Shown here: positions 8,998 through 50,717 of the stretch, one piece after another
How the letters are laid out: every line of letters begins with the position of its first letter
How positions within the stretch are numbered: the first letter of the stretch is position 1
Assembly (NCBI GenBank): GCA_027078545.1
Contig: JALWXN010000004.1
Location: 672,001-736,000 of the forward strand
Direction of reading: 5' to 3'
Source: Nitrososphaeria archaeon
GTDB lineage: Archaea; Thermoproteota; Nitrososphaeria; Geothermarchaeales; JDFR-13
DNA: 64,000 bases
The notes under the pieces: generated by a model
Told to the model about the DNA's origin: nothing
The model's database searches: none
Seen by the model: only the letters and a program-made list of their open reading frames with translations
Translations under genes and position numbers: made by a program

Positions 8998-9154
8998 GTA
9001 ACCGTGAATTGATTTGAACCCCGATAAATACCGAGGTTTAAACCCCTCCCGTTGAGGCATGGGCCTACGCATTTACGAGGCGATACACGTATTTTTTGTA
9101 TAGACGTGGCCACCCGATGTAAATACATTTCTCACGCTGTTTGGGGGAGCCGAT

Positions 9155-9170
9155 CCCTAACCTCTTAGGG
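9155..9170. promoter_or_regulatory. Palindromic operator CCCTAA-cctc-TTAGGG upstream of nosZ
   Basis: Perfect 6-bp inverted repeat, extending to 9150-9175 with one mismatch; same motif recurs at 46434 and 50702. Confidence 0.65.
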
Positions 9171-9221
9171 CTCGGGAATATGGGGCTATCCTCCCAATTC
9201 CATTGATGAGGTGATTATTTA

Positions 9222-11288
9222 ATGGCGGCTAGGAGGAGGGGCGCCGGTAAGGGCGTCTCGAGAAGGGACTTCATAACACTAGCTGGTGGGGCTGCTGTCG
9301 GAGCTGCTATTGGCTATACCGCCTTCAAGCTTACACAGCCAGCGCCTGCTGCTGAGCTACCCTACCAGGAGATCATCCAGGCACGTGGCCTAACCCCGGA
9401 GGATGTAGAGGCTGCGCTGAAGACCTACCTTCCTGGTGGGAGACAGGACGAGTTTATATTGTTTGCCAGCGGTGGACATTCGGGACAGGTGCTGGTCTTC
9501 GGAATACCCAGTATGAAGCTCTACAGAGTGATAGGTGTATTCACTCCAGAGCCTTGGCAGGGATATGGATACGGCGCAAAGGAGACTATGGAGGTTCTTA
9601 GGGGTGGCAACAATGGTGTGAGGGAGCTTACATGGGGCGATGTACACCACCCAGAGGTCAGCAGGACGAACGGCGAGTTCGATGGCGAGTGGCTATTCGT
9701 CAACGACAAGGCTAATGGGAGAGTAGCGGTGATAAGCCTGAAGGACTTCGAGACGAAGCAGATCGTGAAGATACCTAATATGCAGAGCCAGCATGGAGGT
9801 GCATTCGTTACTCCGAATACGGAGTACGTCGTCGTCGGTTCACAGTATCCGACTCCTTGGGATCCTGACAAGGGATATATTCCTGGGGAGACTTATGTAG
9901 AGCTGGATCCAAAGGATCCCGACACGCTAAAGAACAACTTCAGAGGGCTAATAGCATTTCTCAAGTTTGACAGAGAGCGTGGAAGGATCGATCTTAGCAG
10001 GAGCTTCGAGATTGAGCTTCCACCATATTCACAGGATCTAGTTGTGGTTGGCTGGGGGGCCTCAGATGGAATGGCTTTTATCAACAGCTTCAACACTGAG
10101 ATGGCGGTGGGTGATGTTCTTAATGGGGTTCCAGCATTGGAGGTAGGATCAGCAGAGTATGACTACGACTTCCTCCACATTGTATTCTGGAAGAAGGCTG
10201 AGCAGCTTATTCAGCAGGGAAGATATAGAGAGCTAAATGGAGTCAAGGTTATTAGTCTGGAGGATGCAGTGAGGGAAGGGATTCTCTACTTCGCCCCAGA
10301 GCCTAAGAGCCCACACGGTGTTGACATTGCTCCCAGAGGAGATTATATAGTTGTCAGTGGTAAGCTGGAGCCATCAGCCACGATTTATAGTGCTGATGCG
10401 ATAAAGAACGCTGTACAGGCTGGAGACTTCGAGGGTAGGGACGACTTCGGAGTGCCCATCCTGAAGTTTGACAAGGTTAAGGTGGCCCAGGTTGAGCTCG
10501 GCCTAGGGCCGCTGCACACAGAGTTCGACGACAAGGGCTATGCATATACTAGCCTCTTCATAGATAATGCGATAGCCAAGTGGACACTAGGCCCGCCATA
10601 CTTCGAGGGCGACGAGGCATGGAAGGTTGTGGACAAGGTGACTATACACTACAACATCGGCCACCTAGCGGCGCCTGAGAGTAACAGCCCATCCCCTAAG
10701 GGTAAGTACGTCGTGGCCCTCAACAAGTGGAGCATAGACAGGTTCCCAGTCCTAGGCCCATTGAAGCCGCAGAACTTCCAGCTTATAGACATAACTGGGG
10801 AGAAAATGAAGGTTCTCCTAGACTTCCCGATAGGCATCGGTGAGCCGCACTACGCCAAGATCATCGATATAAACAAGATCAAGGCACTAGAGGTCTATCC
10901 TCCTGGAACTGATCCACTGACATTTGAGCCGCATCCACACGCCATACAGCCTGGTGAGGAGAGGATTGAGAGGACCACGATTGATGGTAGGCCAGCTACA
11001 GTAGTCTACGGCACCTTGATCAGGAGTACAGTAACACCAGACTTTATCAGGGTTCGGCAGGGAGACTTGGTGAGAATGTATCTAACCAATGTCGAGACTA
11101 CGCCAGACGCTACCCACGGATTCTCGATATGTGAGTATAACATCAACGCTAGTATAGAGCCGGGCGAGACGGTGACGATAGAGTTCGTAGCTGATAAGCC
11201 AGGTGTTTATGCCTTCTACTGTACAGAGTTCTGTTCACCGCTCCACCTAGAGATGGCTGGCTGGCTAGTCATCGAGCCCAGGGGGTAG
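9222..11288 (+). CDS. nosZ: Nitrous-oxide reductase, clade II type, with Tat signal
   Basis: SRRDF Tat motif; clade II SGGHSGQ..G.PSM; CuZ His motifs DVHH, QHG, PHG, PLH, GH, EPH; CuA THGF...CTEFCSPLHLEM. Confidence 0.96.
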   Translation: MAARRRGAGKGVSRRDFITLAGGAAVGAAIGYTAFKLTQPAPAAELPYQEIIQARGLTPEDVEAALKTYLPGGRQDEFILFASGGHSGQVLVFGIPSMKLYRVIGVFTPEPWQGYGYGAKETMEVLRGGNNGVRELTWGDVHHPEVSRTNGEFDGEWLFVNDKANGRVAVISLKDFETKQIVKIPNMQSQHGGAFVTPNTEYVVVGSQYPTPWDPDKGYIPGETYVELDPKDPDTLKNNFRGLIAFLKFDRERGRIDLSRSFEIELPPYSQDLVVVGWGASDGMAFINSFNTEMAVGDVLNGVPALEVGSAEYDYDFLHIVFWKKAEQLIQQGRYRELNGVKVISLEDAVREGILYFAPEPKSPHGVDIAPRGDYIVVSGKLEPSATIYSADAIKNAVQAGDFEGRDDFGVPILKFDKVKVAQVELGLGPLHTEFDDKGYAYTSLFIDNAIAKWTLGPPYFEGDEAWKVVDKVTIHYNIGHLAAPESNSPSPKGKYVVALNKWSIDRFPVLGPLKPQNFQLIDITGEKMKVLLDFPIGIGEPHYAKIIDINKIKALEVYPPGTDPLTFEPHPHAIQPGEERIERTTIDGRPATVVYGTLIRSTVTPDFIRVRQGDLVRMYLTNVETTPDATHGFSICEYNINASIEPGETVTIEFVADKPGVYAFYCTEFCSPLHLEMAGWLVIEPRG

Positions 11289-11291
11289 AGG

Positions 11292-11798
11292 ATGAAGAAG
11301 TACCTTATCCCAATCCTTTTTATATTTGCCCTTATAGTCATTGGTCTAAACCTCTCCAACCTGTTTATGCGTGGGGAGTCGATCCCCAAGATATATCTGG
11401 ATCAGGACAGATGTGCCCAGTGTGGGATGGTGATTAGCAGGGCGGAGTACGCCGCCCTGGCATACAGGGTAGATACTGGGGAATGGGTGAAGTTCGACGA
11501 TATCGGATGCCTGCTTAAATATATGATCGAGAATGGTGGGACCTCCAACTTTCGCGACATATATGTGGCTGACTACAACACTGGTGAGTTGATAGGGGCT
11601 GTGGACGCATTCTTTGTCAGGGCCTCCGCCGAGGATGTATCCACCCCTATGTCAAGCGGAATAGTGGCGTTCAAATCCCTGGGTGATGCGGAGGCCTTCT
11701 CCAACAGGTATGGAGGCACGGTATACACCTTCCAGGAGCTATACTCCTGGGCCGCCTCCAACCCGGGCGTGATTTATCAGAAGGAGATGTCGATGTGA
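11292..11798 (+). CDS. nosL: NosL copper chaperone
   Basis: CAQCGM, FDDIGC, TPM; directly after nosZ. Confidence 0.9.
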   Translation: MKKYLIPILFIFALIVIGLNLSNLFMRGESIPKIYLDQDRCAQCGMVISRAEYAALAYRVDTGEWVKFDDIGCLLKYMIENGGTSNFRDIYVADYNTGELIGAVDAFFVRASAEDVSTPMSSGIVAFKSLGDAEAFSNRYGGTVYTFQELYSWAASNPGVIYQKEMSM

Positions 11799-11799
11799 G

Positions 11800-12360
11800 G
11801 TGGTCATATTGGATAGGATGATGATCCTCAAGATCGTGCTGGTCGTGGCGCCACTCATAGCTATAGCCCTCCCGCTTTGGAGCCTACGTGTACACCCAGC
11901 TTTCATGGGTCAGAAGTGGCTGGACATCGATGTATGGGGATATGGGGCTGTAACAGGACCTTTAGATAGTCTAAACATTGCAAACCACTATGTAGGGCTT
12001 AAAGAGATCAGGCCTGAGGAGATGTTCGAGCTGAAGTTGCTACCCCTTCTATATCCCTTGATGGCGGTAGTGAACGGGCTTATACTCTTCGGGGATGAGG
12101 CGAAGTATAGGGTTGGGAAGTGGCTCGGCCTAGCCACATTGATAGGTGTGGTTGCCTATTTCCAGTGGTGGCTATACAGATACGGACATGATATAGACCC
12201 TAAATTAGCTAGGATTGAGATAGACCCCTTCACACCGTATGTAACGGGCTACTACAAGATAGCCAACTTCGAGATCATAGCCTTCTTCAACATTGGCTAC
12301 ATCATCCTGCTCGTGAGCTACATCCTATCCCTCTACCTCAGGAGGAGGGAGTATGGGTGA
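11800..12360 (+). CDS. nosB: Clade II nos-associated 4-TM membrane protein (NosB-like)
   Basis: LNIANHYVG motif, WLYRYGH; lies inside the nos cluster. Confidence 0.7.
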   Translation: MVILDRMMILKIVLVVAPLIAIALPLWSLRVHPAFMGQKWLDIDVWGYGAVTGPLDSLNIANHYVGLKEIRPEEMFELKLLPLLYPLMAVVNGLILFGDEAKYRVGKWLGLATLIGVVAYFQWWLYRYGHDIDPKLARIEIDPFTPYVTGYYKIANFEIIAFFNIGYIILLVSYILSLYLRRREYG

Positions 12361-13781
12361 TGACCAACATCCAGAGAACCCTCTCCATCCCAATACTCCT
12401 TTTTATCGCCCTTATCCTTGCTCAGCCCGTAGACGGGTTGGTGGGTAACTCCTCCATATACGATGATCTCGGGAATAGATACTCCTCCCTCGGGGAGGCT
12501 GTGAGGGAGGCATCCCCAGGCTCAACAATATATGTCGAGGGTGGTATCCATAGAGGCGGTATAGTCATCGATAAACCCCTAAGCTTAGTAGGTATAGACA
12601 GGCCAGTTCTCGACGGTGAGTATAGTGGTAGCGTTGTCACTATAGAGAACACTGAAAATGTCTCGATAACAGGCTTCAGGATTGAGAGGAGTGGACGGGT
12701 ATACTCCACCGAGGACTCCGGGGTAAAGATCATCAACTCCACAAGAGTATTTATACGGTACAATGTGTTCGACGACGTCTTCTTCGGGATACTGGTCAAG
12801 GATAGTAGGGGTGTCGAGATAGTAGGGAATAATATTACTGGGATTGATGAGTACTATCTCTCCGACAGGATGCATGGTATCTACAACTGGTACTCCTACA
12901 ACATATCGATTATAAACAATACCTTCCGCTATGTGAAGGACGGGGTCTATAACGACCATAACTATGACACGGTCATTGCTAACAACACATTCCGCTACGG
13001 CCGCTACGGTGTACACCTGATGTATAGCGATAGGTTCGTGATAGAGCGGAATGATATCTCTGGCTTCATAGCAGGGATGGCCCTGATGTATAGTGAGAAT
13101 TTGACGATACGATATAACAAGATACATGGGAATAGGGTAGGTGGCATTGGTGAGGGCCTATTCATACCTGAGACCGACAACATATTGATCGAGCATAACT
13201 GGATAGTCGGGAATGTGGTGGGGATCAATATTAGGTATACTCCATATACGCCCGGCAAATACTCTATTATACGGTTCAACGTGATAGCCTACAACTATGT
13301 GGGGCTCCATGTAGATACTGATAGCGAGGCGGAGGTCTATGGGAACGACTTCATAGAGAATGTCCAGGAGATTAGGTATATCGGCTATACCAAGAGCAGG
13401 ATAAAGTGGTATAGCGAGGAGCTAAGGATAGGTAACTACTGGTCCGGGGTCAAGGCCTTCGACTCCGATGGAGACGGCCTTGTCGATGTGCCCTATACCC
13501 TGGTCGACCCGCTATACCGTTTTATAAGGGAGCACCGTGAGCTGAGCGTATACTACCTCAGCCCTGTCTACGAGGTCCTCGATATCGTGTTTAAATACTC
13601 GTATGAGAGCCCCCTCCAGGGCCTGATAGAGGATCCATACCCGTTGAGGGAGCCATACAATATTGATAGGCTAGACCTAACCATTTACATTGAGAACCTT
13701 CCATATACACTTGTGTTGACCCTGATACCCATGTATATCGTCTATAGAGGTGTATACCGTGCTAGAGGTAAGAGGGGTTAA
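12357..13781 (+). CDS. nosD: NosD beta-helix maturation protein
   Basis: Parallel beta-helix repeats, YGVHLMYS, GNYWS...D.DGDG..D.PY. Confidence 0.92.
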   Translation: MMTNIQRTLSIPILLFIALILAQPVDGLVGNSSIYDDLGNRYSSLGEAVREASPGSTIYVEGGIHRGGIVIDKPLSLVGIDRPVLDGEYSGSVVTIENTENVSITGFRIERSGRVYSTEDSGVKIINSTRVFIRYNVFDDVFFGILVKDSRGVEIVGNNITGIDEYYLSDRMHGIYNWYSYNISIINNTFRYVKDGVYNDHNYDTVIANNTFRYGRYGVHLMYSDRFVIERNDISGFIAGMALMYSENLTIRYNKIHGNRVGGIGEGLFIPETDNILIEHNWIVGNVVGINIRYTPYTPGKYSIIRFNVIAYNYVGLHVDTDSEAEVYGNDFIENVQEIRYIGYTKSRIKWYSEELRIGNYWSGVKAFDSDGDGLVDVPYTLVDPLYRFIREHRELSVYYLSPVYEVLDIVFKYSYESPLQGLIEDPYPLREPYNIDRLDLTIYIENLPYTLVLTLIPMYIVYRGVYRARGKRG

Positions 13782-14634
13782 CAAGTTTTTCGGGGATTAC
13801 CAGGTGTTGAAGGATATATCCTTCAGCCTCGGCCCTGGGGAGGCTGCTGTCCTCCTCGGGCGTAACGGGGCTGGGAAGACCACCCTCCTGAGATGTATAG
13901 CGGGTATCCTACGGTATGAGGGGGAGGTCCTTGTCGAGGGTATAGACATGGCTAGGGAGCCTATAGAGGCTAAGAAGAGGATCGGCTACCTCCCCCAGGT
14001 CCCCCCTGTCAGGAGCGACGTCACAGGGTATGAGCTCTTCAACATGTATACCGAGCTACACGGGATAGACCTCGACGCCGATGAATGGTTTGAGAGGTTC
14101 GCCCTCCACGACGCGATGGATTTATATATCGACGAGTATAGCGGGGGTATGAGGCAGAGGCTCTTCCTAATGATGACGATAGCCCACGACCCCAGCCTGG
14201 TTCTCATGGACGAGCCTATGAACAACCTGGACAGCCTGGGTAAGAAGCTCCTAATCGACATAATCAACGAGATGAAGGGGCGTGGCAAGAGCTTCCTAAT
14301 AAGTGTCCACAGGGTCTCAGACTTCATAGCATATGCCGATGAGATCCTCGTGGTGGATGATGGGAGGCTCCTCTTCAAGGGCCCGGTCACCCGCCTATTC
14401 GAGGGCCTAGGGATATCCCGTATATTCATCTACGCCCCGGACGGGCTTGAGAGGAGGATGGTTGAGGAGGTAGGTGGGGAGAGGATAGGAGAGAATAGAG
14501 TAGTTGTCGAGGCGGAGAATATCCATGAGACCGTTATCCGCCTCGTCGAGATGGGCGTGAGGAGCTTCTTCATCGAGGAGCCAGGTATCGACGTGATTAT
14601 CAGGAGGCTGAGGAGGGATGAGGACGGTCTATAG
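13750..14634 (+). CDS. nosF: NosF ABC ATPase
   Basis: GRNGAGKT, YSGGMRQR, DEP; between nosD and nosY. Confidence 0.88.
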   Translation: MYTVLEVRGVNKFFGDYQVLKDISFSLGPGEAAVLLGRNGAGKTTLLRCIAGILRYEGEVLVEGIDMAREPIEAKKRIGYLPQVPPVRSDVTGYELFNMYTELHGIDLDADEWFERFALHDAMDLYIDEYSGGMRQRLFLMMTIAHDPSLVLMDEPMNNLDSLGKKLLIDIINEMKGRGKSFLISVHRVSDFIAYADEILVVDDGRLLFKGPVTRLFEGLGISRIFIYAPDGLERRMVEEVGGERIGENRVVVEAENIHETVIRLVEMGVRSFFIEEPGIDVIIRRLRRDEDGL

Positions 14635-15442
14635 CCTGGCCCGTGAAGAGTTTCTGAGCGGGCTTAGGAATAGATGGATACTTGTATACTCACTCTCATA
14701 CCTACTCCTGGCGATAGCCATATCACCCTTCTCCCTGGCAGGGCTCAACATCCTGGGTATGAAGGCGGTTGGCAAGGTCCTATCCGCATTGATAAATATA
14801 TCGCTATACCTAGTCCCCCTAATATCCCTGATAACCTCGACGGTCGCTATAGTGGGGGATAGGGAGACGAGATATCTTGAGTGGCTAATGTCCAACCCAG
14901 TCTCCGAGAGGGCCTACCTACTCGGCAAGTTTATAGGTCTCTTCCTATCGATAACTGTGGCCACCCTCCTAGGCTTCGGGGTTGCAAGCTGGTTCGTCAT
15001 CCTATTCCTACCGCCGGAGGACGTGTCTAAATACTTCCTCCTAATCTCTGTCGCCCTACTACTATCAGCGGTATACGTGGCTATGGGGCTACTGATAAGC
15101 GTCCTGAGCAGGACACGCTACCACGCACTGGGCACAGGCTTCCTCATATGGTTCTTCACAGTCTTCGTCTTCGACCTATTCGTGATGAGCTTCCTACTAA
15201 GCCTCCTAAACGACCCACTACTCGCCTCCATAGCCGCTACACTCAACCCGATACAGGGTATAAGGCTCAACATGATCTCCGTCATAGATCCCGAGATGAC
15301 CTTCCTAGGCTTCACAGGGATAGGTGAGCTGAGGGAGAATGTATGGCTCGTACTAGGGACTTCGCAGGCGGTGGTGATCGGCTACACAATCCTATTCGCA
15401 GGATTGGCATATCTACAGCTGAGGAGGCAGGACGTGATATAG
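14618..15442 (+). CDS. nosY: NosY ABC permease
   Basis: LRNRW, YLVPLI, LLGKF.G, LNP; 6 TM. Confidence 0.88.
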   Translation: MRTVYSLAREEFLSGLRNRWILVYSLSYLLLAIAISPFSLAGLNILGMKAVGKVLSALINISLYLVPLISLITSTVAIVGDRETRYLEWLMSNPVSERAYLLGKFIGLFLSITVATLLGFGVASWFVILFLPPEDVSKYFLLISVALLLSAVYVAMGLLISVLSRTRYHALGTGFLIWFFTVFVFDLFVMSFLLSLLNDPLLASIAATLNPIQGIRLNMISVIDPEMTFLGFTGIGELRENVWLVLGTSQAVVIGYTILFAGLAYLQLRRQDVI

Positions 15443-15482
15443 CCCCCATCCTATAAGGGCTTGAACGATATATGGGCTTTGT

Positions 15483-16844
15483 ATGGATGGTCAGCTAGGG
15501 AGGCTTCTCCACCCAAGGAGCGTAGCGGTTATAGGTGCGAGTAGTAAGCCGGGTAAGATCGGGAATGAGATACTGAGGCTCCTCGTATCCAATGGCTATA
15601 GGGGCAGGATATACCCAGTTAACCCGAGGGGTGGGGAGGCCTATGGAATAAGGTTCTACACATCGATCGACGAGCTGCCAGGAGATATAGACCTCGCATT
15701 GATAGCCCTCCCCGGTGAGCAGGCCGTGGATAGTCTAGAGGCGATGGCTACACGTGGCCTCGGAGCAGCGGTGATATATGCCTCTGGCTTCGCTGAGCAG
15801 GGGAGGGCTGAGCTAGAGGGGAGGATTCGGAGGATAGTGGAGAGGTATGGAACCAGGGTTGTAGGCCCAAACTGTGCAGGCTTCATAAACTGGGCCGCCA
15901 ACCTATATGCAGGCTTCGTGCCGGATGTAAAGCCTGGGGAGATGGCCCTGATAAGCCAGAGCGGGGCCTTCTCAGCGGCTGTGAACCACTACCTAGGTGT
16001 GAAGGGCCTCGGCCTGGGGCTCCTCATAACCCTTGGGAACAAGGCGGACGTCGCGGAGTGGGAGCTGATAAGGCATCTCGGGGATCAGCATCCAGTCTAC
16101 ATGCTCTATATGGAGGGGCTAAGGGAGGGTGAGGGTAGGAGGCTGGCCCTAGCCATCAAGGGTAGTGGGAGGCCAGTGGTCATACTCAAGACCGGGTGGA
16201 CAGAGGCGTCTCAACGGGCCCTGGCAAGCCACACAGCCTCCCTTGCAGGGGACTACCGCCTCTTCAGAACGATTATGCGTGGGGCTGGTGCATACCTGGT
16301 TGGCGACTATGTCTCCCTGGTCGATGTTGCGGAGGCGGTGTATAGGCTCAAGCCCCCCAGGGGTGGTGGGATAGGGATAGTTACGAATGGCGGCGGCCCA
16401 GCGGCTGTCCTCATGGATCATCTGGGGAGGCTTGGACACAGCCCCGGCCCAACGCCTAGGGAGGTCGTGGATAAGCTGGGCTTCCTTAGGCCACATATGC
16501 AGAGGGGGAACCCCATAGACTTGACGGCCGATGGTGGGTCTGACTACTACTACCACACTGTCAAGACTCTGATGGAGAGTAGCTGGCCCGGTGTACTGGC
16601 CGTCCTCCACGTCCCGCCGAGCTTCGTAGACCCTGTGGAGGTGGCTAGGGCCGTCGGCGAGGCATATAGAGACGGTGGTGAGTCTAAGCCCCTGATCCCC
16701 CTCTTCCTAGGCCCCCGCTACGTGGAGGCGTGGAGAGTACTGGATAGGTATGGCCTCCCGAGGATGCTTACATATTCATCGGCGGCGGAGGCGATAGACT
16801 ATCTACTGGCTAGGGGTTTGAGGGGCGGTCCCCCCTCTCGATAG
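15483..16844 (+). CDS. Acyl/acetate-CoA ligase (ADP-forming) alpha subunit, second paralogue
   Basis: PRSVAVIGAS, GPNC, SQSGA, SHTASLAG, NPIDLT. Confidence 0.87.
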   Translation: MDGQLGRLLHPRSVAVIGASSKPGKIGNEILRLLVSNGYRGRIYPVNPRGGEAYGIRFYTSIDELPGDIDLALIALPGEQAVDSLEAMATRGLGAAVIYASGFAEQGRAELEGRIRRIVERYGTRVVGPNCAGFINWAANLYAGFVPDVKPGEMALISQSGAFSAAVNHYLGVKGLGLGLLITLGNKADVAEWELIRHLGDQHPVYMLYMEGLREGEGRRLALAIKGSGRPVVILKTGWTEASQRALASHTASLAGDYRLFRTIMRGAGAYLVGDYVSLVDVAEAVYRLKPPRGGGIGIVTNGGGPAAVLMDHLGRLGHSPGPTPREVVDKLGFLRPHMQRGNPIDLTADGGSDYYYHTVKTLMESSWPGVLAVLHVPPSFVDPVEVARAVGEAYRDGGESKPLIPLFLGPRYVEAWRVLDRYGLPRMLTYSSAAEAIDYLLARGLRGGPPSR

Positions 16845-17724: not shown

Positions 17725-17778
17725 GAAATAATTTATCTAGCTTGATGGACTTAAAGTCGGCATATTATCAAGATCTGG

Positions 17779-19865: not shown

Positions 19866-19925
19866 ATAATTATTACCCCCAGCCCCGTGACGCATATATT
19901 CCCATCTCGATAAATATAAAAAGCC

Positions 19926-19945
19926 TTGTCGAGTATGCTCGACAA
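19926..19945. promoter_or_regulatory. Palindrome TTGTCGAG-tatg-CTCGACAA upstream of the ABC operon promoter
   Basis: Perfect 8-bp inverted repeat next to the TATA-like box at 19911-19920. Confidence 0.45.
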
Positions 19946-27992: not shown

Positions 27993-27994
27993 TT

Positions 27995-38870: not shown

Positions 38871-38875
38871 TAGCG

Positions 38876-42218: not shown

Positions 42219-42287
42219 CCCATATCCACATCATTATCTATAGCCTCCGACCGATTATGTATCATCTACATTGCCTGGTGGTGGGGC

Positions 42288-43028: not shown

Positions 43029-43111
43029 CCTAATACCCCTATTTAAATCGGCGTGGGGGCAATACAATACTTGACACTTATTTGAACACCCCATTGGATG
43101 AGGTGTCGCCG

Positions 43112-44254
43112 GTGGCCGATGTCGGTATAATAGGGGTTGGGACGACCCAGTTCCGTCCCGAGACCCGTGAGAAGCTGTTCAAGGAGCTTATGTACGAGGC
43201 TGCCTACCGAGCCTATCTCGAGGCGGGTGTCGATCCTAGGCGTGACATAGATGCCTTCATAACGGCCTCTGAAGACCTCTGGGAGGGCCTGGCAATATTC
43301 GATGAGTATGTCCCAGACCAGCTGGGCGGAGTATTGAAACCGGTCTTCACTGTGGGTGGGGACGGTATACATGGGCTTATCCATGGATACATGCTCATAA
43401 AGACAGGTAGGTTCGACGTCGTGGCCGTGGAGGCGCATAGTAAGGCCAGCGAGATAGAGAATATCAAGAAGGTGGTTAGGTTCGCCCTCGACCCGATATA
43501 TCTACGCCCAGTCATCGAGGATGTCGACGTCCTAGCGGGGCTGGAGATGGCTGCCTCCCTAGGCTGCTACGGCATAGACATGGATACTGTGAACGAGGTG
43601 ATACTGAAGAACCACTTCAACGGATCCTTCAACTCGGCTCCCTATGCCCAGAACCTCGACGAGAACAGCTTCGAGACCCCTGAATACCTTGCCGAGCCGC
43701 TGAGGGCACTGGACGTGGCTCAATACGTCGATGGAGGAGTGGTCATCGTCCTAGCCTCCAAGGAGTACATCTCGAGGGAGGGATTGGAGCCCGTATGGAT
43801 AGAGGGTGTAGGCTGGGCTACACAGGGTGGACGCTTCGAACGCTTCCTAGACATGCCCGGCGAGGGCTTGGCTGCAGCTGCTAGGATGGCCTACGACATG
43901 GCTGGCGTCTCGAGGCCTAGGAGGTATTTCGACCTGGCAGAGGTGGACGACAGGTTCAGCTTTAGGGAGCCTGTATCACTGATAGCCCTCGGCCTAGCCA
44001 GTGGAGACGTCAACCTGGACTATGCGGACAGGATTTTCGATATGGATGGGGAGCTCCCAGTGAACGTCTCCGGCGGGTTCCTCGCAAATGGGTATCCACT
44101 AGAGGCGGGAGGCCTTATGAAGCTTGTCTACGCAGCTAGGCAGATATGGGGCGAGGCCGGGCCCAACCAGCTCGACGATGTGGAGAAGGCGTTGGTGGCG
44201 ACTAGGAGGGAGATACCCTCAACCACATATGGGGTAGTAGTCCTATCGGGGTGA
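43112..44254 (+). CDS. Thiolase-fold (SCP2/Ltp4-like) protein lacking catalytic Cys
   Basis: Thiolase fold: DGG, AEVDD, NVSGG; GGDG at the Cys loop and GYP in place of GHP; GTG 43112 follows GAGGTG. Confidence 0.8.
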   Translation: MADVGIIGVGTTQFRPETREKLFKELMYEAAYRAYLEAGVDPRRDIDAFITASEDLWEGLAIFDEYVPDQLGGVLKPVFTVGGDGIHGLIHGYMLIKTGRFDVVAVEAHSKASEIENIKKVVRFALDPIYLRPVIEDVDVLAGLEMAASLGCYGIDMDTVNEVILKNHFNGSFNSAPYAQNLDENSFETPEYLAEPLRALDVAQYVDGGVVIVLASKEYISREGLEPVWIEGVGWATQGGRFERFLDMPGEGLAAAARMAYDMAGVSRPRRYFDLAEVDDRFSFREPVSLIALGLASGDVNLDYADRIFDMDGELPVNVSGGFLANGYPLEAGGLMKLVYAARQIWGEAGPNQLDDVEKALVATRREIPSTTYGVVVLSG

Positions 44255-45438
44255 TCAATATGAAGATGAATATCTATAGGAAGAACCGTGTCGCGTGTGT
44301 TGGGGCCGGGCTAACCCTCTTCAGGCGTAGGCTGATGGAGACGAGCGACGAGCTCATGTGGCTAGCCGCTAGACAGGCGCTCGACGAGGCAGGCCTAACC
44401 ATAGAGGATATAGACTGCATAATATTCGGGACAGCCCCGGACAACTTCGACGGCATCCATATGCAGAGCGAGGCCCTTGCTGATGGGGCAGGAGCCGTGA
44501 ATAAGCCCTATACAAGGGTCTATGTAGGTGGTGGTACAGGGGTCTTCAGCGTTATAGCCGGGTGGTGGCACGTGGCCTCTGGACTGTGTGACAGGGTGCT
44601 CGTCATAGCGGAGGAGAAGATGAGCCATGTACAGCCCCATCCCCAGTACCTCTTCCACCACATCTTCGACCCCGTGACTGAGAAGCCCCTGGGCGTCAAC
44701 CTGATATGGATCTTCGCCCTGGAGATGCATCGATACATGTATAAATACGGCATCAAGAAGGAGGACATCGCCCTCGTCTCGGTGAAGAATAAGAGGAACG
44801 CGTTGGACCATCCATCCGCCCAGGTGGCTGCGAAGATAACTGTGGAGGACGTCCTCAACAGCGAGGTACTGGTATGGCCCGTCCAGAGGCTCGACATCTC
44901 ACCCGTCTCAGACGGTGCTGGGGCCCTCGTGCTTGTCAGTGAGTCGGAGGCTAAGAAGCTTACCGACGAGCCTATATGGATCGACGGCGTAGGGTGGAGC
45001 CTCGACACGATGTACTGGACAAATAGGGACCTGGCATTCCCCGTCTACCTATACTACGCAGGTAAGATGGCCTATGAGATGGCGGGGATCGAGAACCCGA
45101 GGAAGGAGATAGACTTCGCAGAGGTCTACGACCCCTTCGACTATAAGGAGCTCCACCACATGGAGGGTCTACAGCTTGCTAGGAAGGGTGAGGCGCCTAT
45201 ACTAACTAGGGAGGGAGTCACCGAGCGGGATGGAGACCTCCCGATAAACCCGAGCGGAGGCCTACTAGGCGTGGGGAACCCGATCGCTGCAGCCGGGATA
45301 ATGAAGGTGGCCGAGGTCTACTGGCAGCTGAGAGGAATGGCGGGTAAGAGGCAGGTCAAGAAGGATGTGGTCACCGGCCTGGCCCAGGCCTGGGGAGACC
45401 TTATGCAGGTGGGCACAGTCGTGGTTATGAGGAGGTGA
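44251..45438 (+). CDS. Thiolase-fold (SCP2/Ltp3-like) protein lacking catalytic Cys
   Basis: GGGTG at the Cys loop, SDGA, EVYDPF, NPSGG, GNP in place of GHP. Confidence 0.82.
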   Translation: MINMKMNIYRKNRVACVGAGLTLFRRRLMETSDELMWLAARQALDEAGLTIEDIDCIIFGTAPDNFDGIHMQSEALADGAGAVNKPYTRVYVGGGTGVFSVIAGWWHVASGLCDRVLVIAEEKMSHVQPHPQYLFHHIFDPVTEKPLGVNLIWIFALEMHRYMYKYGIKKEDIALVSVKNKRNALDHPSAQVAAKITVEDVLNSEVLVWPVQRLDISPVSDGAGALVLVSESEAKKLTDEPIWIDGVGWSLDTMYWTNRDLAFPVYLYYAGKMAYEMAGIENPRKEIDFAEVYDPFDYKELHHMEGLQLARKGEAPILTREGVTERDGDLPINPSGGLLGVGNPIAAAGIMKVAEVYWQLRGMAGKRQVKKDVVTGLAQAWGDLMQVGTVVVMRR

Positions 45439-45971
45439 GCCGGATGGATACTAGGCCTAAGAACCCGGAGGGAACCCCATATAGGATGGAGGATCTGAGG
45501 AGTGGGGCCATACCATATACCGAGGATAGTCTAGAGGCATGGTACCGCTGGAGCCTGGGGAAATATCTAGGCAAGTATCTAGAGGGGCTTAGGGAGGGTA
45601 AGATCTATGGTAGGAGGTGTAACAACTGTGAGAGGATCTATGTCCCGCCTAGAGAGGTGTGCCACCACTGCTTCCGCACCACCGATGAGTGGGTGGAGGT
45701 CGGTGATACTGGGAGGGTTAACACAGCCGTGGTTAGCTATATATCCGCTGATAGGGGTAGGGTGGAGGAGCCCATAATAATTGCGGTTATAGAGCTGGAG
45801 GGAGCCTCGCCAGGGATCGGCATCCTACATAGGCTTGGAAACGTGTCCCCCGAGGACGTGAAGAGTATGAAGATATTCGGTAAGAGGGTAAGAGCAGTTT
45901 GGAAGCCTCCTGAGGAGAGGACTGGCTCGGTAAACGATATCCTATACTTCGAGCCTATCGAGGAGGTGTAG
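45435..45971 (+). CDS. DUF35 Zn-ribbon/OB-fold acyl-CoA-binding protein
   Basis: CNNC..YVPPR..CHHC, R.GS..DI.YF. Confidence 0.88.
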   Translation: MSRMDTRPKNPEGTPYRMEDLRSGAIPYTEDSLEAWYRWSLGKYLGKYLEGLREGKIYGRRCNNCERIYVPPREVCHHCFRTTDEWVEVGDTGRVNTAVVSYISADRGRVEEPIIIAVIELEGASPGIGILHRLGNVSPEDVKSMKIFGKRVRAVWKPPEERTGSVNDILYFEPIEEV

Positions 45972-45975
45972 GGGT

Positions 45976-46392
45976 ATGGAGTATAGGTTTAAGGTGGATG
46001 TCCCCGGCTATATCTACCCCACGGGGAGGGCTGGAAAGATATTCGCCGAGAACATTAAGAAGGGCGTAGTAGTAGCGTCTCGCTGTGACGAGTGTAGGGT
46101 GTACTTCCTACCCCCAACAGCCTACTGCCCACACTGCTTCAACGAGCTCAGGAACTATACCCCGGTGGAGACATTCATACTGGTCGCCAAGACGGTCCTG
46201 GAAAAGGGTGTTGAGAAGGTCGCCTATGGATATGTCAAGGGGATTATAGGTGGTGAGGAGACCCAGGGAGGCTTCATACACAGGGTCGACCCCGACGCCG
46301 AGCCGGGAGAGGTTTTGAAACCCGTTCTGAAGCCCGAGGAGGAGCGCCGGGGGATCATTACAGATATAGAGTTCTTCGCCAAGGCGGACTAG
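45976..46392 (+). CDS. DUF35 Zn-ribbon/OB-fold protein, second copy
   Basis: CDEC..FLPP..CPHC, RRGIITDIEFF. Confidence 0.85.
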   Translation: MEYRFKVDVPGYIYPTGRAGKIFAENIKKGVVVASRCDECRVYFLPPTAYCPHCFNELRNYTPVETFILVAKTVLEKGVEKVAYGYVKGIIGGEETQGGFIHRVDPDAEPGEVLKPVLKPEEERRGIITDIEFFAKAD

Positions 46393-46433
46393 CCCCCCTC
46401 CCCCAATTTTTACACCAGTCGTAAATACTCTTA

Positions 46434-46449
46434 TCCTAAGTAATTAGGG
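46434..46449. promoter_or_regulatory. Palindromic operator TCCTAA-gtaa-TTAGGG
   Basis: Same motif as upstream of nosZ; 65 nt before the CuA-protein ATG. Confidence 0.62.
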
Positions 46450-46514
46450 GGATTGATTAAATCTGCCCTGATTGATATGAGATTGTGGATAACTAAGACC
46501 GGAGGTGAAGCGAT

Positions 46515-47111
46515 ATGGATCAGAAGGTTATTGCCGGTGTAGCGATCGTCATACTCATAGCTGCCATCGCGGGATACTTCATGATGAGTAGCCCCGCCGG
46601 TGAAACAGGCGGGGGTGAGGCTGGTGAGGAGACATACATAGTTATCGGCTACTACTGGGGCTTCAAGATATACGACTCCAACTACAACCCTGTGGACAAG
46701 ATCATGGTTAAGAAGGGAACGACCCTAAAGATAATATTCCTCAACGCCAGATCCTTCGCCGAGGACTTCTATGGCCCACTGGAGGAGGAGAGTAAGCAGA
46801 AAGGCGTAGGTGGCCTCGACAACGGGCCATTGGAGCAGAAGATCATGGAGGCTTTGGAGACTAACTTGGTTGACCATGGCCTACAGATAATTGGATATGG
46901 CGTGAGTGTAGCTACGAACTATAAGGCTTTCAGCGGAACTGCCAAGACACTCCAGGAGTTCTTCCAGAACGAGCCTCAGGACGCTATTAACCAGCACACA
47001 GTAGTCTTCAAGGCCGATAAGACGGGTGTATTCGACTTCGTCTGCTACGTCGTCTGTGGCTATGGCCACTCCTTCATGAGCCTAAAGGGCGCTCTCCAGG
47101 TGTACGAGTAG
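46515..47111 (+). CDS. Membrane-anchored stand-alone CuA-type cupredoxin
   Basis: N-terminal TM; YWGF strand; DHG and C-x3-C-x3-H-x2-M (CYVVCGYGHSFM). Confidence 0.8.
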   Translation: MDQKVIAGVAIVILIAAIAGYFMMSSPAGETGGGEAGEETYIVIGYYWGFKIYDSNYNPVDKIMVKKGTTLKIIFLNARSFAEDFYGPLEEESKQKGVGGLDNGPLEQKIMEALETNLVDHGLQIIGYGVSVATNYKAFSGTAKTLQEFFQNEPQDAINQHTVVFKADKTGVFDFVCYVVCGYGHSFMSLKGALQVYE

Positions 47112-47122
47112 GCGCCCAACAC

Positions 47123-47671
47123 CTAATCCTTTTTACCCAGCTTGTCAAACTCTCCTCTGAGGGCTAGCTCCAGGTTCCTGAGGTACCATCTAGTATCCTC
47201 GTCCACCCACTTCTCAACTTCATAGTATCTAATCTTCCCGTCACTACCCATCGTGACGACGAGGGAGATCCCGCTGTTTATTATGGCCCTCCTACATCTC
47301 TCACAGGGCTTTGCGTCTAGGACCTTGCCTGTCTTCGGGTCTATGCCGTAGAGGTATAGTGTCCCTCCATACACCGAGGCGCCGTTCCTGGCGGCGTTGA
47401 TTATACAGTTCTCCTCGGCATGTACCGCTGGGCATAGGTCGTAGGCCGTGCCATGTGGAAGGTTGAGTATATCCTTTATACACCCACCGACCTCGTAGCA
47501 GTTTACACCTCCCCTTACAGGGCCGTTGTAGCCGGTAGATACGATTGCGTCCTTAACCACGACTATGGCTCCGTAGTGTGCCCTTGTACATGGGCTCCTC
47601 ATCGAGACTGCCTTGGCTATCTCGAGGTAGTATAGGTCCTTCTCTATCCGCCCACCGCTCTGGCCAGACAT
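47123..47671 (-). CDS. dCMP/cytidine deaminase family protein
   Basis: GYNG, HAEEN, PCERC; ATG 47671 is the likelier start. Confidence 0.88.
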   Translation of the reverse strand: MSGQSGGRIEKDLYYLEIAKAVSMRSPCTRAHYGAIVVVKDAIVSTGYNGPVRGGVNCYEVGGCIKDILNLPHGTAYDLCPAVHAEENCIINAARNGASVYGGTLYLYGIDPKTGKVLDAKPCERCRRAIINSGISLVVTMGSDGKIRYYEVEKWVDEDTRWYLRNLELALRGEFDKLGKKD

Positions 47672-47719
47672 AATATCAATAACTCTCCCTGGGCGGGGAT
47701 AAACCATTCCAACCTATTA

Positions 47720-49099
47720 ATGGGAAGCCTGATTGAAATATCTCCTAGCCAGAACACCACCTACATGGATAGCCTCAAGAGGGGGATAGAGTCCTTCCTC
47801 CTCGAGAAGCTGGGTGGTAGGCCTCCAAGCGCCAGCTACACAGTCGTATGGAGGGATGGAGAGACTCTACGAGGGGCTGTTGGCTATAGGGATGTGGAGG
47901 AGGGGCTCCCGGCGACGCCTGAGACGCTATACGGGGTGGGTAGTATAACGAAGACCTTCACCGCCTTAACAGTACTCATGCTCCAGAGGGAGGGCCTACT
48001 ATCGCTCGACGACCCCATATCACGATACGTACCCATCGATATGGAGATCGGGGGTGAGGAGGTTAGGATATGGCACCTCCTAAGCCACACCTCTGGGGTA
48101 GCCGCACTGGCCTATGCGGAGAGCCTGCTGAGGGGCTATGTAGGTGAGTCGCCCAGCTACCTACCCATCTCGGGGCCGGAGGACATACTCTCCTTTATGG
48201 AGGGGTGGAGGGACTGGGCCATCGCATGGCCTGGTGAGAAGTACTTCTACCTTAACGAGGGGTTCGTCCTCGTGGGTATGGCCATCGAGAAGGCGACTGG
48301 GATGAAGTATGAGGATGCCCTCAGGAAGTATGTCCTGGAAAGGCTGGGCATGAGTAGCACAACTGTTGGTAGGCCTATAGACATGGGTATGATGGCGACG
48401 CCCTACGTGGTCGGTAAAGAGGGTTTGAGGAGGGCTAGGGTCCCACCCCTAGGGGCAGATGGAGGGATGATAACAAATGCAGTTGACATGTCACGCTTCC
48501 TAATGGCTATGCTCAACAGGGGTGGCGACGCCCTTCCCAGAGAGGTTGTCGATGAGCTTGAGAAGCCAAGGATAAGGACCTCCCTACTCAATAGGGAGGA
48601 GTATTACTGCCTAGGCCTATCAAAGACCGTCGTGGGTGGGCTGGAGCTGTATGGGCATAGCGGCTCAGTCCTGGTCTACACGGCCTACATGGCCTACAAC
48701 AGGGAGGAGGGCGTCGGCGTCGCCGTCATGTCGAACGGGACTGGCTACCCAATGTCTAGCGCCGGGCTATACATACTGGCCAGGGCCCTAGGCAGGAACC
48801 CGCTAGAGTTCGAGCCACTCCTCATCGACGAGGCTCTGAACAGCCTGGTAGGCACCTATGAGAGCTTCAAGGGCGGCTTCAGAGCCAGGGTTGAGAGGAT
48901 GGGTGGTATACTCATAATCAAGTATAGTGGGAGGAGCTACGAGGTCTCAATACCCCTGATTCCAAGGGATCTCTCAGGGGACGAGAAGATCTTCGAGGCT
49001 ATAAATGGTGACCGGCGCTACGAGGCGGTCTTCTACAAGCGGGACGGTGAGCTGTATCTACAGGTTGAGAGGTATCTATTCCGGAGAGTCCCTGCTTGA
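47720..49099 (+). CDS. Serine hydrolase, beta-lactamase/Pab87-like peptidase
   Basis: SITK (SxxK), LLSHTSG, YLN, HSG; extra C-terminal beta domain. Confidence 0.88.
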   Translation: MGSLIEISPSQNTTYMDSLKRGIESFLLEKLGGRPPSASYTVVWRDGETLRGAVGYRDVEEGLPATPETLYGVGSITKTFTALTVLMLQREGLLSLDDPISRYVPIDMEIGGEEVRIWHLLSHTSGVAALAYAESLLRGYVGESPSYLPISGPEDILSFMEGWRDWAIAWPGEKYFYLNEGFVLVGMAIEKATGMKYEDALRKYVLERLGMSSTTVGRPIDMGMMATPYVVGKEGLRRARVPPLGADGGMITNAVDMSRFLMAMLNRGGDALPREVVDELEKPRIRTSLLNREEYYCLGLSKTVVGGLELYGHSGSVLVYTAYMAYNREEGVGVAVMSNGTGYPMSSAGLYILARALGRNPLEFEPLLIDEALNSLVGTYESFKGGFRARVERMGGILIIKYSGRSYEVSIPLIPRDLSGDEKIFEAINGDRRYEAVFYKRDGELYLQVERYLFRRVPA

Positions 49100-49167
49100 T
49101 ACCCATAGACGGGTCGCCCGGCATATATAGTATATCGCCCCATTAGGGCGGGAGAGGTGTTCAGACA

Positions 49168-50025
49168 CTGAGTAATAGGAGGCTACTAGTCCTACTCCTA
49201 ATCCCCATCCTAATCATGCCTGGGGTCTCGGCCGAGACCTACAGCTTCATGGATGGCTCGGGAGTAGACTACTTGGCGGATAACCTGGGAGAGTTTAGCG
49301 ACTTGATGGATAAGGTTGATGTTATACGTGGCTCATTCACACTGGAGGGTAACAGCTTCAGCATAGAGGTAGAGATGGCTGATAAGCCCCTAGTGGGGGC
49401 CGAGGCGAGCAGCTATGCAAGCAACGCCTCAGGCCTACTGATGCGCATACTGATGATGTTCAGGATGGATGGACCCGGCGGCGAGGCTGTTGACCTAAGC
49501 GTCAGAACCCTATATACCTATAGCGAGGCACCCAGTGGGGATGGCTACGTGTTCACAACCTTCTACTGGGAGCTGCTGGTTGACTACTATAGGGTCGACG
49601 AGGGTTATGGCAACTACAGCGTCATGGGCAATACGATGATCTTCGCTGGCGAGGCTACAAACACATCTATACTAGACGGCTCGACACCGAACCTGCTGAA
49701 CGTCACAGCCCTATTCAACTGGCAGGGTATCTACCTAGCTGTGGACTATGCAGGGGAGGGATGGGAAGCTCCCGACACCGCGCCTGTAGACACACCCGTC
49801 GTGGATCCCGACACGACGCCGGGAGTAGTCGATGATACAGACCAGGGAGTACCTAGTGATACTGATGATGCTGTGGAAGATAGTCAGGAGAAAGGTGGAG
49901 AGGAGAAAACTGGTGTGGAGACGGGTGATACGGGTATGTGGATACTCATCGGACTAGTGGCGGTTGGAATTGTAGGTGCCGGTGTAGCGCTTTACATCCT
50001 GAGGAGTGGTGGGCTATCCAAGTAG
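49168..50025 (+). CDS. Cell-surface protein with acidic D/T/P linker and C-terminal TM anchor
   Basis: A signal peptide is completed only by an in-frame CTG at 49168, 8 nt after GAGGTG; the ORF-track start at 49216 lies inside that peptide. Confidence 0.7.
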   Translation: MSNRRLLVLLLIPILIMPGVSAETYSFMDGSGVDYLADNLGEFSDLMDKVDVIRGSFTLEGNSFSIEVEMADKPLVGAEASSYASNASGLLMRILMMFRMDGPGGEAVDLSVRTLYTYSEAPSGDGYVFTTFYWELLVDYYRVDEGYGNYSVMGNTMIFAGEATNTSILDGSTPNLLNVTALFNWQGIYLAVDYAGEGWEAPDTAPVDTPVVDPDTTPGVVDDTDQGVPSDTDDAVEDSQEKGGEEKTGVETGDTGMWILIGLVAVGIVGAGVALYILRSGGLSK

Positions 50026-50616
50026 CCTAGCCATATACTCCTCAAGCCCCTTGAAGATCATCTCAGCAGCTATCGAGGCAACTATTATCGACATTAGGCG
50101 GCCGAACGTCTTTATAACTCCTGGCCCCAGTATGCTGTAAAGCTTATCAACATACCTAAGCATCAGGTAGGTAGCCCCCACGACTAAGTAGCCAGCAAGG
50201 AGGACTAGATATACGGGGTAGACCGTTGTTAGGAGGATCAGGGTCGTTATCGTGCCCGGCCCGACTAGCAGGGGTGTGGATATAGGCACCACCGCCATCT
50301 CCTCTGGCGAGATCTTCTTAGCCTTTGGCAGGCCGCCGAGCATATCTATGGCTATCGCCATGAGCAGGACTCCACCGCCTATACGTGTAGCCGCTACACT
50401 CACGCCGAAGAACATCAGGATGTAGGCCCCTCCAATGGTGAATACGGTTATCAATACTGCGCATACAAGGGCTATGCTCCTCACGATCCTCAGGTGCCTA
50501 TCACGGTCGAGGCCGGACATGAAGCTGAGGTATAGGGGTAGGATCCCAGGTGGATCCATGATGGCGAAGATCTGTATGAAGGCCGTGGCCAGCGCTATAA
50601 AAGTCACCGGGTCCAT
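50014..50616 (-). CDS. marC: MarC-family membrane protein
   Basis: IMDPPG, IGGG.LL, VPISTPLLVGPG; start ATG 50616. Confidence 0.88.
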   Translation of the reverse strand: MDPVTFIALATAFIQIFAIMDPPGILPLYLSFMSGLDRDRHLRIVRSIALVCAVLITVFTIGGAYILMFFGVSVAATRIGGGVLLMAIAIDMLGGLPKAKKISPEEMAVVPISTPLLVGPGTITTLILLTTVYPVYLVLLAGYLVVGATYLMLRYVDKLYSILGPGVIKTFGRLMSIIVASIAAEMIFKGLEEYMARLLG

Positions 50617-50701
50617 GATACACCACTCCCTGGGCCCATGGCGTTGATACGGATGATTAGTAATTAAATCATCCCCTGGGCATGGTTTAGAAAACATATA
50701 C

Positions 50702-50717
50702 TCCAAAGGTCTTAGGG
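50702..50717. promoter_or_regulatory. Operator variant TCCAAA-ggtc-TTAGGG upstream of the heme-copper operon
   Basis: One mismatch to the CCTAA-N4-TTAGG core; 52 nt before ATG, versus 51 nt at nosZ. Confidence 0.55.

Follow-up and report, generated by a model that had tools for sequence, protein, structure and literature searches.

A palindrome of 16 bases with the consensus YCCTAA-N4-TTAGGG precedes three transcription units in the window analysed here (the whole stretch of 64,000 nucleotides, from a Geothermarchaeota archaeon), and its conservation in sequence and position identifies it as a regulatory DNA site. The units are the operon of a gNOR-type haem-copper oxidoreductase, the nosZLDFY operon and the gene of a stand-alone CuA cupredoxin. 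With slightly more confidence than doubt, the palindrome is read as an operator that defines a small regulon of NO and N2O respiration, probably activated by the NarO-like protein encoded at 52956. The three promoters would then be coordinated by one dimeric transcription factor.

Three palindromes in the window

Operator 1 (CCCTAA-cctc-TTAGGG, CCCTAAcctcTTAGGG) occupies positions 9155..9170 and is a perfect palindrome, 51 nt 5' of the nosZ ATG at 9222; operator 2 (TCCTAA-gtaa-TTAGGG, TCCTAAgtaaTTAGGG) occupies 46434..46449, 65 nt 5' of the ATG of the CuA gene at 46515; and operator 3 (TCCAAA-ggtc-TTAGGG, TCCAAAggtcTTAGGG) occupies 50702..50717, 52 nt 5' of the ATG at 50770 with which the gNOR operon begins. 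None is assigned to a strand and all are intergenic; the coordinates, intergenic location and start-codon distances claimed in an earlier note on this DNA are correct. A minus-strand ORF (50014-50781) that seemingly covers operator 3 is an over-extended MarC gene with its true ATG near 50617.

The rarity of the core, also claimed earlier, stands for the exact sequence: CCTAA-N4-TTAGG occurs twice in the window, where 0.10 copies are expected, none of 100 shuffles reaches two, and the whole 1.24-Mb genome contains only these two copies, operators 1 and 2. It does not extend to operator 3, which has one core mismatch. When one mismatch is allowed, the window has three matches, with 2.58 expected, and the genome has 32, with about 37 expected (arithmetic with uniform base composition), and the count is likewise at expectation in five relatives; operator 3 and the raw counts are therefore not significant by themselves, and enrichment by count was discarded as proof. 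The significance of the palindromes comes from placement and conservation, not from counts. For the best site per 200-nt upstream region, the shuffle P is at most 0.006 in 10 of 11 orthologous promoters, with values of 0/5000 for operator 1, 0.0002 for operator 2 and 0.005 for operator 3.

Genes downstream of the palindromes

The nos operon (9222..15442, plus strand) is assigned by Pfam matches and consists of contiguous or overlapping ORFs: nosZ with a twin-arginine signal (9222-11288), nosL (11292-11798), a gene for an unknown membrane protein (11800-12360), nosD (12357-13781), a nosF-like ABC ATPase gene (13750-14634) and a nosY-like ABC permease gene (14618-15442). The gene at 46515..47111 (plus strand) encodes a predicted membrane-anchored cupredoxin of 198 aa, classed as CuA-type by its ligand pattern, DHG ... 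C-x3-C-x3-H-x2-M, which is invariant in four homologues; the protein has no match in Pfam, and its alignment with the CuA loops of COX2 is weak (E = 0.16). In relatives this gene is linked to nosZ, the two diverging in G003 and lying about 4 kb apart in G007, which bears out its earlier inclusion as a member, and its product probably serves NosZ.

The third unit starts with gNOR subunit II (50770..51330, plus strand), a PF00116 match with a cupredoxin fold in which STEYSGPEHPYM occupies the place of CxExCGxxHxxM, so that the CuA cysteines are replaced and the CuA ligands are gone. Subunit I (51332..52864, plus strand) is a haem-copper oxidoreductase by HMMER alignment to 2YEV, in which FWWGLDLIAD aligns with FWFYSHPTVY; Asp260 stands for the first CuB histidine and Asp264 for the cross-linked tyrosine, and WWGLDLIADG, including both residues, is invariant in five subunit I orthologues. 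These residues mark what had been called a NOR-like enzyme as gNOR-type. The published description of gNOR matches subunit I of the window; gNOR is a proposed NOR there, and the biochemistry in that paper concerns eNOR only (Murali et al. 2024, PMC11214002). An operator common to gNOR and nosZ lends regulatory support to the proposed role of gNOR as an NO reductase in N-oxide respiration. Copper, which had been suggested as a unifying theme of the loci, is not one, because subunit II lacks CuA ligands.

Conservation in relatives and further sites

Before the gNOR operon, a CCCTAA-N4-TTAGGG-like site lies 44-52 nt upstream in all eight Geothermarchaeota genomes compared, and before nosZ such a site lies 47-55 nt upstream in four of five, operator 1 having its counterparts in G002, G003 (CCCTAAcgaaTGAGGG) and G008 (CCCGAAtataTTCGGG). 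Different genera thus share the sites, both in sequence and in position, amid flanking DNA that has diverged, and operator 2 lies inside a 44-nt block that is conserved with G002, with different flanks. Conservation before orthologues, on which the earlier note had made its reading depend, is found for the gNOR operon and nosZ, with a constant distance to the start codon and a constant placement relative to a TATA-like box. In G007 the site is missing before nosZ and before both CuA paralogues, and one stands in front of the gene of an HTH_10 paralogue. A hemerythrin gene is preceded by the site in G008 and G012; it has no orthologue in the window's genome (G000).

Mismatch and PWM scans of G000, the latter being the genome-wide search for extra members suggested earlier, gave nothing convincing; the window's own sites were part of the PWM training set, which makes the ranks partly circular. 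The site at C4:163683 (CCCTAATTATATAGGG) was rejected, as it lies 14 nt before an ORF and resembles a TATA box, as were C4:130321 and C4:653289, where the downstream genes are unrelated. Searches for nirK and nirS found neither, and so turned up no nir promoter in which a further site might lie. No site precedes the type-1-like cupredoxin gene at C4:598591, and the promoter of the regulator gene at 52956 has no site and hence no autoregulatory one.

Promoter layout

The three sites of the window have a common layout of palindrome, a gap of 6-7 nt and an AT-rich 8-mer. The TATA-like 8-mer AATATGGG (9177..9184, plus strand), 6 nt 3' of operator 1, is the putative core promoter element of nosZ, and ATTAAATC (46456..46463, plus strand), 6 nt 3' of operator 2, is likewise predicted from sequence; the TATA-like box at 50724..50731 (plus strand) aligns with the conserved TTATAC(C/A) of the relatives, the TATA at 50726-50729 being invariant. 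Across the orthologous promoters the TATA-like box is always 5-7 nt 3' of the palindrome, a gap that equals the length of a BRE. Alignment of the gNOR promoters gives the common order palindrome, TTATAC(C/A), TATATA, GGGG and ATG, in which the TTATAC(C/A) and TATATA blocks are invariant and at fixed spacing. TATA-like sequence is also found just 5' of several sites. GTAAATAC was considered as a general TATA box and rejected: it is enriched in intergenic DNA, yet has no fixed distance from start codons.

The centre of the site would fall about 44 bp 5' of the point at which transcription is predicted to start, where a regulator bound to it may help to recruit TFB and TBP. On this geometry the regulator would activate transcription when oxygen is absent or N-oxides are present.

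Candidate regulator

The gene at 52956..53555 (plus strand) encodes a protein of 199 aa with two N-terminal ferredoxin-like repeats, a C79-x2-C82 motif and a C-terminal HTH_10 (PF04967, E = 4.9e-20, residues 143-194). No other Pfam domain is detected, so there is no PAS or GAF domain. The HTH is 37% identical to that of NarO, and hhalign aligns the two proteins with 97.9% probability over 96 columns of the C-terminal half, including about 45 residues before the HTH; the earlier nomination of this gene as the regulator candidate is strengthened by this homology. The hhalign homology stops short of the cysteine region, and the cysteine motif, although collinear with NarO C80/C82/C91 in a MAFFT alignment, lies outside the significant region. 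C79-x2-C82 is unchanged throughout 20 homologues, most of which also have C16; C90 is confined to close relatives. It is proposed that the protein would bind the palindrome as a dimer and that its cysteine motif may sense O2, NO or redox state.

The protein is the only HTH_10 protein above the cut-off in the genome; a second, weak match at C4:62583 is, by eye, the C-terminus of a TFB-like zinc-ribbon protein. This CxxC-bearing HTH_10 regulator is genetically coupled to gNOR: its gene lies directly 3' of gNOR in G000, G002, G005, G007, G008 and G013, which represent four genera, and among 14 genomes of the family both genes occur in seven, neither in four and one alone in three, the last being fragmentary. 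A Foldseek search with the regulator model (pLDDT 89) gave no informative solved relative, the matches being generic ferredoxin-like or ACT-like domains with TM 0.3-0.4. The membrane protein at 53654-54211, 3' of the regulator, has no similarity to the membrane protein that neighbours the G007 paralogue and is a target there.

Boxes in other archaea

It has been reported that in H. mediterranei nirK, nor and nosZ are each preceded, at 66-79 nt, by CGAAYATDKTYG and that the nos and nor promoters lose activity when this box is mutated (PMC10062603), so that the haloarchaeal precedent invoked earlier is upheld; the box is proposed to be read by HTH_10 regulators of the 'bacterio-opsin activator-like' kind (PMC10062603, PMC11218638). 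In other Thermoproteota (L070-L072), CGAACATGTTCG, which is the haloarchaeal denitrification box, stands 47 nt before gNOR, between gNOR and a divergent HTH_10 gene. In Caldarchaeales, ATGCAA-N4-TTGCAT lies 37-47 nt before gNOR, adjoined by CxxC-HTH_10 genes. HTH_10 genes adjoin gNOR both in Caldarchaeales and in L070-L073, and each group has its own AA-N4-TT palindrome. The narO/nar intergenic region of H. volcanii (narO at L041:25437-26072) contains CGAATCCGTTCG.

A wider reading, which we hold tentatively and with rather more doubt than confidence, is that cysteine-bearing HTH_10 sensors and xxxxAA-N4-TTxxxx operators form one ancient pan-archaeal system for the control of N-oxide reductases. 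The operator position would then be fixed at about 40-55 nt before the ATG, abutting the BRE/TATA, while the outer half-site bases would be recoded by lineage, as CGAA in haloarchaea and some Thermoproteota, CCCTAA in Geothermarchaeota and ATGCAA in Caldarchaeales. In crustal-fluid Geothermarchaeota without a detectable nitrite reductase, the system would join the putative gNOR to NosZ and to a CuA protein dedicated to electron transfer, as a self-contained pathway from NO to N2.

Alternative explanations

The operator and regulon may be real and yet be read by a factor of another family encoded elsewhere, of the Lrp, TrmB or ArsR type, a reading that we consider unlikely though not negligible. 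It draws on G001, where the gNOR site is kept and no orthologue of the regulator was found in a genome that is 85% complete, on G003, where both sites are kept and the regulator lies on another contig rather than beside gNOR, and on the regulator gene itself, which carries no site. Against these stand the status of the 52956 product as the genome's only HTH_10 protein, the adjacency to gNOR in four genera, which recurs for HTH_10 genes in Caldarchaeales and L070-L073, and a box type that matches the haloarchaeal box associated with NarO in the literature. Still less probable is that the same HTH_10 factor acts at this operator as a repressor, in which case the palindrome would lie between the true, upstream TATA and the start and would block polymerase recruitment until a signal arrives. 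The TATA-like sequences 5' of several sites make this geometry possible: GTAAATAC precedes operator 2 by 5 nt and the G013 site by 1 nt, AACATATAC abuts operator 3, and TATATATA directly adjoins, on the regulator side, the site in front of the G007 HTH_10 paralogue. However, the upstream flank is not conserved and has no such element in G008, and at nosZ the distance to GTAAATAC is 27 nt, the element there suiting the divergent AOR gene rather than nosZ; it is the downstream blocks that are invariant at fixed spacing, and mutations of the haloarchaeal box reduce promoter activity (PMC10062603).

That the site coordinates copper-protein genes by copper supply, rather than by N-oxides or oxygen, is highly improbable. 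In its favour, nosZ and the gene at 46515 encode CuA proteins, and copper handling is the task of nosL and nosD; yet the CuA cysteines are missing from subunit II of gNOR and an Asp replaces a CuB histidine in subunit I, the targets in G008 and G012 include a hemerythrin gene, the type-1-like cupredoxin gene of G000 has no site, and the positionally equivalent boxes of other archaea are denitrification boxes. Chance similarity, or a hairpin or terminator with no regulatory role, is disfavoured most strongly and regarded as very improbable. The one-mismatch motif is indeed no commoner than expected, and operator 2 lies 42 nt 3' of a co-directional gene; however, the sites persist across genera in otherwise diverged DNA, their half-sites are conserved while the spacer is not, no T-run follows the palindromes, and the T-run of the upstream gene precedes operator 2.

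Significance

The proposed regulon of NO and N2O respiration, whose operator is most likely read by the 52956 protein, is a solid prediction of a type already known and not a new kind of biology. For an archaeal lineage of the deep subsurface that is uncultured, it puts forward concrete members of a regulon of N2O and NO reduction and names a candidate regulator. It would extend the NarO/denitrification-box paradigm from haloarchaea to Thermoproteota and flags the stand-alone CuA cupredoxin as a likely partner of NosZ. Three half-site variants at one promoter position provide a ready system for studying the evolution of HTH_10 specificity; if the pan-archaeal reading is true, they would be a natural specificity series.

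Comparison with known systems

Among the closest known counterparts is the haloarchaeal denitrification box CGAAYATDKTYG, likewise a semi-palindrome with an AA-N4-TT core, which stands tens of nt upstream of the nor and nosZ start codons and is common to dispersed N-oxide reductase promoters and accessory genes. Exact fits to its consensus are CCCGAAtataTTCGGG before nosZ of G008 and CGAACATGTTCG before gNOR of L070-L072, whereas the sites of the window do not have the half-site CGAA/TTCG but CTAA or CAAA paired with TTAG; the half-site here is CCCTAA, with T for the haloarchaeal G and an additional conserved CC/GG. Site and ATG are 44-66 nt apart here and 66-79 nt apart in haloarchaea, the targets here are gNOR and a stand-alone CuA cupredoxin in Thermoproteota, not Halobacteria, and no nir or nar member of the regulon is known here. 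The box of the window appears to work like the haloarchaeal one, its sequence being a lineage-specific variant.

Like NarO, the candidate regulator has about 200 aa, no PAS or GAF domain and a C-terminal HTH_10, and the NarO gene likewise lies beside its respiratory target with the box in the shared promoter region. The cysteines of the two proteins, about 60 residues before the HTH, may correspond. NarO of Haloferax volcanii (Hattori et al. 2016, J Bacteriol 198:1077) is said to have four Cys, whereas the candidate regulator family conserves only CxxC and one N-terminal Cys. The bacterial FNR/DNR/NnrR systems also unite nor, nos and accessory genes under an O2 or NO sensor by one palindromic box at a fixed promoter position; that box, however, is a different one (TTGAT-N4-ATCAA), their protein family (CRP) is unrelated, and their promoters are of the sigma-70 type rather than the archaeal TBP/TFB type. 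The enzyme of the window agrees with the gNOR family in having Asp for an active-site His, no active-site Tyr and a cupredoxin subunit II without CuA ligands (Murali et al. 2024, PMC11214002); structurally there is no difference, and what is new here is the operator common to the gNOR operon and nosZ.

Palindromic Sites and the Genes Behind Them

Three palindromes of the type CCTAA-N4-TTAGG, described in an earlier note, were all found in the window with exactly the sequence and position claimed. Operator 1, CCCTAAcctcTTAGGG, is located at 9155-9170, 51 nt from the nosZ ATG; operator 2, TCCTAAgtaaTTAGGG, at 46434-46449, 65 nt from the ATG at 46515; and operator 3, TCCAAAggtcTTAGGG, at 50702-50717, 52 nt from the ATG at 50770. 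Of the exact 10-base core, the window has 2 copies versus 0.10 expected, and the rest of the 1.24-Mb genome has none. When one mismatch is allowed, the counts (3 in the window versus 2.58 expected; 32 genome-wide) equal expectation, so operator 3 is not acceptable from counts alone. An 8-mer, GTAAATAC, lies 27, 5 and 1 nt 5′ of three palindromes (window 9120-9127 and 46421-46428, and the gNOR site of record L045); of its 29 copies in the genome, 13 fall in intergenic DNA, and its distance to start codons is not fixed.

Operator 1 precedes the nos operon (9222-15442), in which nosZ and nosL are followed by an uncharacterized membrane protein gene and by nosD, nosF and nosY. The interposed gene (11800-12360) encodes a 186-aa protein without a Pfam family, overlaps nosD by 4 nt and may specify an undescribed nos accessory protein. 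Operator 2 precedes a gene for a membrane-anchored CuA-type protein (46515-47111); this protein has no Pfam match. Four homologues share its set of CuA ligands, DHG ... CxxxCxxxHxxM, without variation, and the set aligns weakly with the CuA loops of COX2. Operator 3 precedes a two-subunit haem-copper oxidoreductase (50770-52864). In subunit I, Asp replaces the first CuB histidine, a second Asp replaces the cross-linked tyrosine, and the motif WWGLDLIADG is invariant in five orthologues, while subunit II is a cupredoxin with serines in place of the CuA cysteines. The same features of both subunits have been given for gNOR, a proposed NO-reductase family (Murali et al. 2024, PMC11214002).

The 37 kb separating the loci is occupied by housekeeping genes (aconitase, fumarase, IMPDH, M1 peptidase and thiolases), and neither nirK nor nirS was found in the genome, which is 92% complete. 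Divergent from gNOR, a MarC-family membrane protein gene lies on the minus strand at 50014-50617; the longest-ORF call, reaching 50781 and engulfing operator 3, is wrong, and the gene is not kept as a gNOR neighbour in relatives. In the related genome G003, the gene divergent from gNOR (L038:1692-2231) encodes a membrane-anchored type-1-like cupredoxin, whose orthologue in the window's genome (C4:598591-599127, 45% identity) is located elsewhere, without an operator.

Conservation of the Palindrome in Related Genomes

Phylogenetic footprinting, proposed in the earlier note, found the palindrome kept before orthologues of both the gNOR operon and nosZ. A site with at most two mismatches to CCCTAA-N4-TTAGGG lies 44-52 nt before the start of the gNOR operon in 8/8 Geothermarchaeota genomes examined, among which subunit II identity is 52-98%. 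The multiple alignment of these promoters has four conserved islands only: the half-sites, a TTATAC(C/A) box 5-7 nt 3′ of them, TATATA about 14 nt beyond, and then a Shine-Dalgarno-like GGGG. For nosZ, the site is present 47-55 nt upstream in four of five genomes, with CCCTAAcgaaTGAGGG in G003 and CCCGAAtataTTCGGG in Ca. Geothermarchaeum rappei JdFR-14 (G008); the nosZ upstream region of Ca. Scotarchaeum otlingeri JdFR-13 (G007) is without it. In 10 of 11 promoters, the shuffle P of the best site in each 200-nt upstream region was ≤0.006. The site before the CuA gene is kept in G002. In G003, the CuA gene is divergent from nosZ and shares one intergenic region with it, and in G007 it is about 4 kb from nosZ, a linkage that backs a functional link between the CuA protein and NosZ. 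It also suggests that the CuA gene of the window retained its own operator when it became separated from nosZ. The G003 nosZ operator is part of an extended inverted repeat whose arms, cgaaTGAGGG ... CCCTCAttcg, enclose a 12-nt loop, and a TATA-like sequence is also found on the CuA side of this region, 6 nt from the site.

Intergenic sites in relatives also occur before a hemerythrin gene (G008, G012) and an HTH_10 paralogue (G007). The former, CCCTTAATATTTAGGG (L036:1501-1516 and L032:1501-1516), is 27 nt before a gene for a 197-aa HHE-domain protein in both genomes; this gene, without an orthologue in the window's genome, is likely to belong to the regulon as an additional member, its function being related to NO/O2. 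The latter, CCCTGAAATTTTAGGG (L035:1501-1516), separates the paralogue from the gene of a polytopic, 200-aa membrane protein whose family is unknown, a possible case of autoregulation.

Candidate Regulator, Promoter Geometry and Alternative Readings

The gene at 52956-53555, on the gNOR strand and 92 nt 3′ of gNOR, encodes the genome's sole HTH_10 protein to score above cut-off. This gene or its orthologue is found immediately 3′ of gNOR in six genomes of four genera (G000, which holds the window, G002, G005, G007, G008 and G013); across 14 family genomes, both genes are present in seven, neither in four, and three fragmentary assemblies are discordant. C79-x2-C82 is invariant in 20 homologues, most of which have an N-terminal cysteine as well. 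The AlphaFold model, confidently predicted (pLDDT 89), has two ferredoxin-like repeats and an HTH; among solved structures, this model has no informative relative. With NarO, the denitrification regulator of Haloferax volcanii (pHV3), BLAST aligned the HTH at 37% identity, and hhalign gave 97.9% probability over 96 columns, extending to some 45 residues on the N-terminal side of the HTH. MAFFT also places the cysteine clusters in collinear positions, a collinearity that is not statistically established. The adjacent NarO-like protein is the probable reader of the palindrome; one rival is that a different transcription factor reads it.

Each of the three window palindromes has an AT-rich 8-mer 3′ of it, across a gap of 6-7 nt, which is the length of a BRE. 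In archaea, transcription usually starts about 23 nt beyond the 3′ end of the TATA box. This spacing predicts starts 10-28 nt before the ATGs, which leaves enough space for the GAGGTGA or GGAGGTGA motifs seen there, and it would put the operator's centre near -44, a typical position of archaeal activators. Activation is favoured over repression; a TATA-like sequence also precedes several sites, so the geometry may instead be that of a repressor. Unlikely rivals are a copper-responsive regulon and chance similarity or a hairpin. The earlier reading of one regulon of N-oxide loci with the CuA protein as a member is supported, and the palindrome is very likely a conserved cis-regulatory operator common to gNOR, the nos operon and the CuA cupredoxin.

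Comparison with Other Archaeal Boxes

In H. mediterranei, nirK, nor and nosZ are each preceded by CGAAYATDKTYG at a distance of 66-79 nt. Mutations in this box reduce the activity of the nos and nor promoters, and its proposed readers are HTH_10 "bacterio-opsin activator-like" proteins (PMC10062603, PMC11218638). On H. volcanii pHV3, CGAATCCGTTCG (L041:26111-26122) lies in the narO/nar divergent intergenic region, 39 nt before the narO start codon. Among 31 further gNOR loci, three from Thermoproteota MAGs carry CGAACATGTTCG, a perfect copy of the haloarchaeal nor/nos box, 47 nt before gNOR (L070:3339-3350, L072:3339-3350 and L071:1018-1029); on the box's other side, about 60 nt away, begins an HTH_10 gene (193 aa) that is divergent from gNOR. 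Similarly, eight Caldarchaeales-type loci (L049, L050, L056, L058, L060, L064, L067 and L074) have a perfect or near-perfect ATGCAA-N4-TTGCAT 37-47 nt before the subunit II ATG, matching the Geothermarchaeota site in promoter position, and a CxxC-HTH_10 gene adjoins gNOR in several. A different conserved palindrome, TCATAaaattgTATGA, lies 85-92 nt before gNOR in L052, L053 and L057, where no HTH_10 gene was seen within 4 kb. HTH_10 recognition helices differ between groups: STL(S/T)E for Geothermarchaeota, STVSR for Caldarchaeales, SYLSE for L070-L073 and STFTE for NarO. From the boxes of the three MAGs, Caldarchaeales and haloarchaea, there appears to be a single operator type with at least three half-site variants, the Geothermarchaeota palindrome among them; an AA-N4-TT core and a common promoter position are found in every variant. 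The predicted regulon is well supported and, with its operator, belongs to an already known type of system rather than to a new kind.
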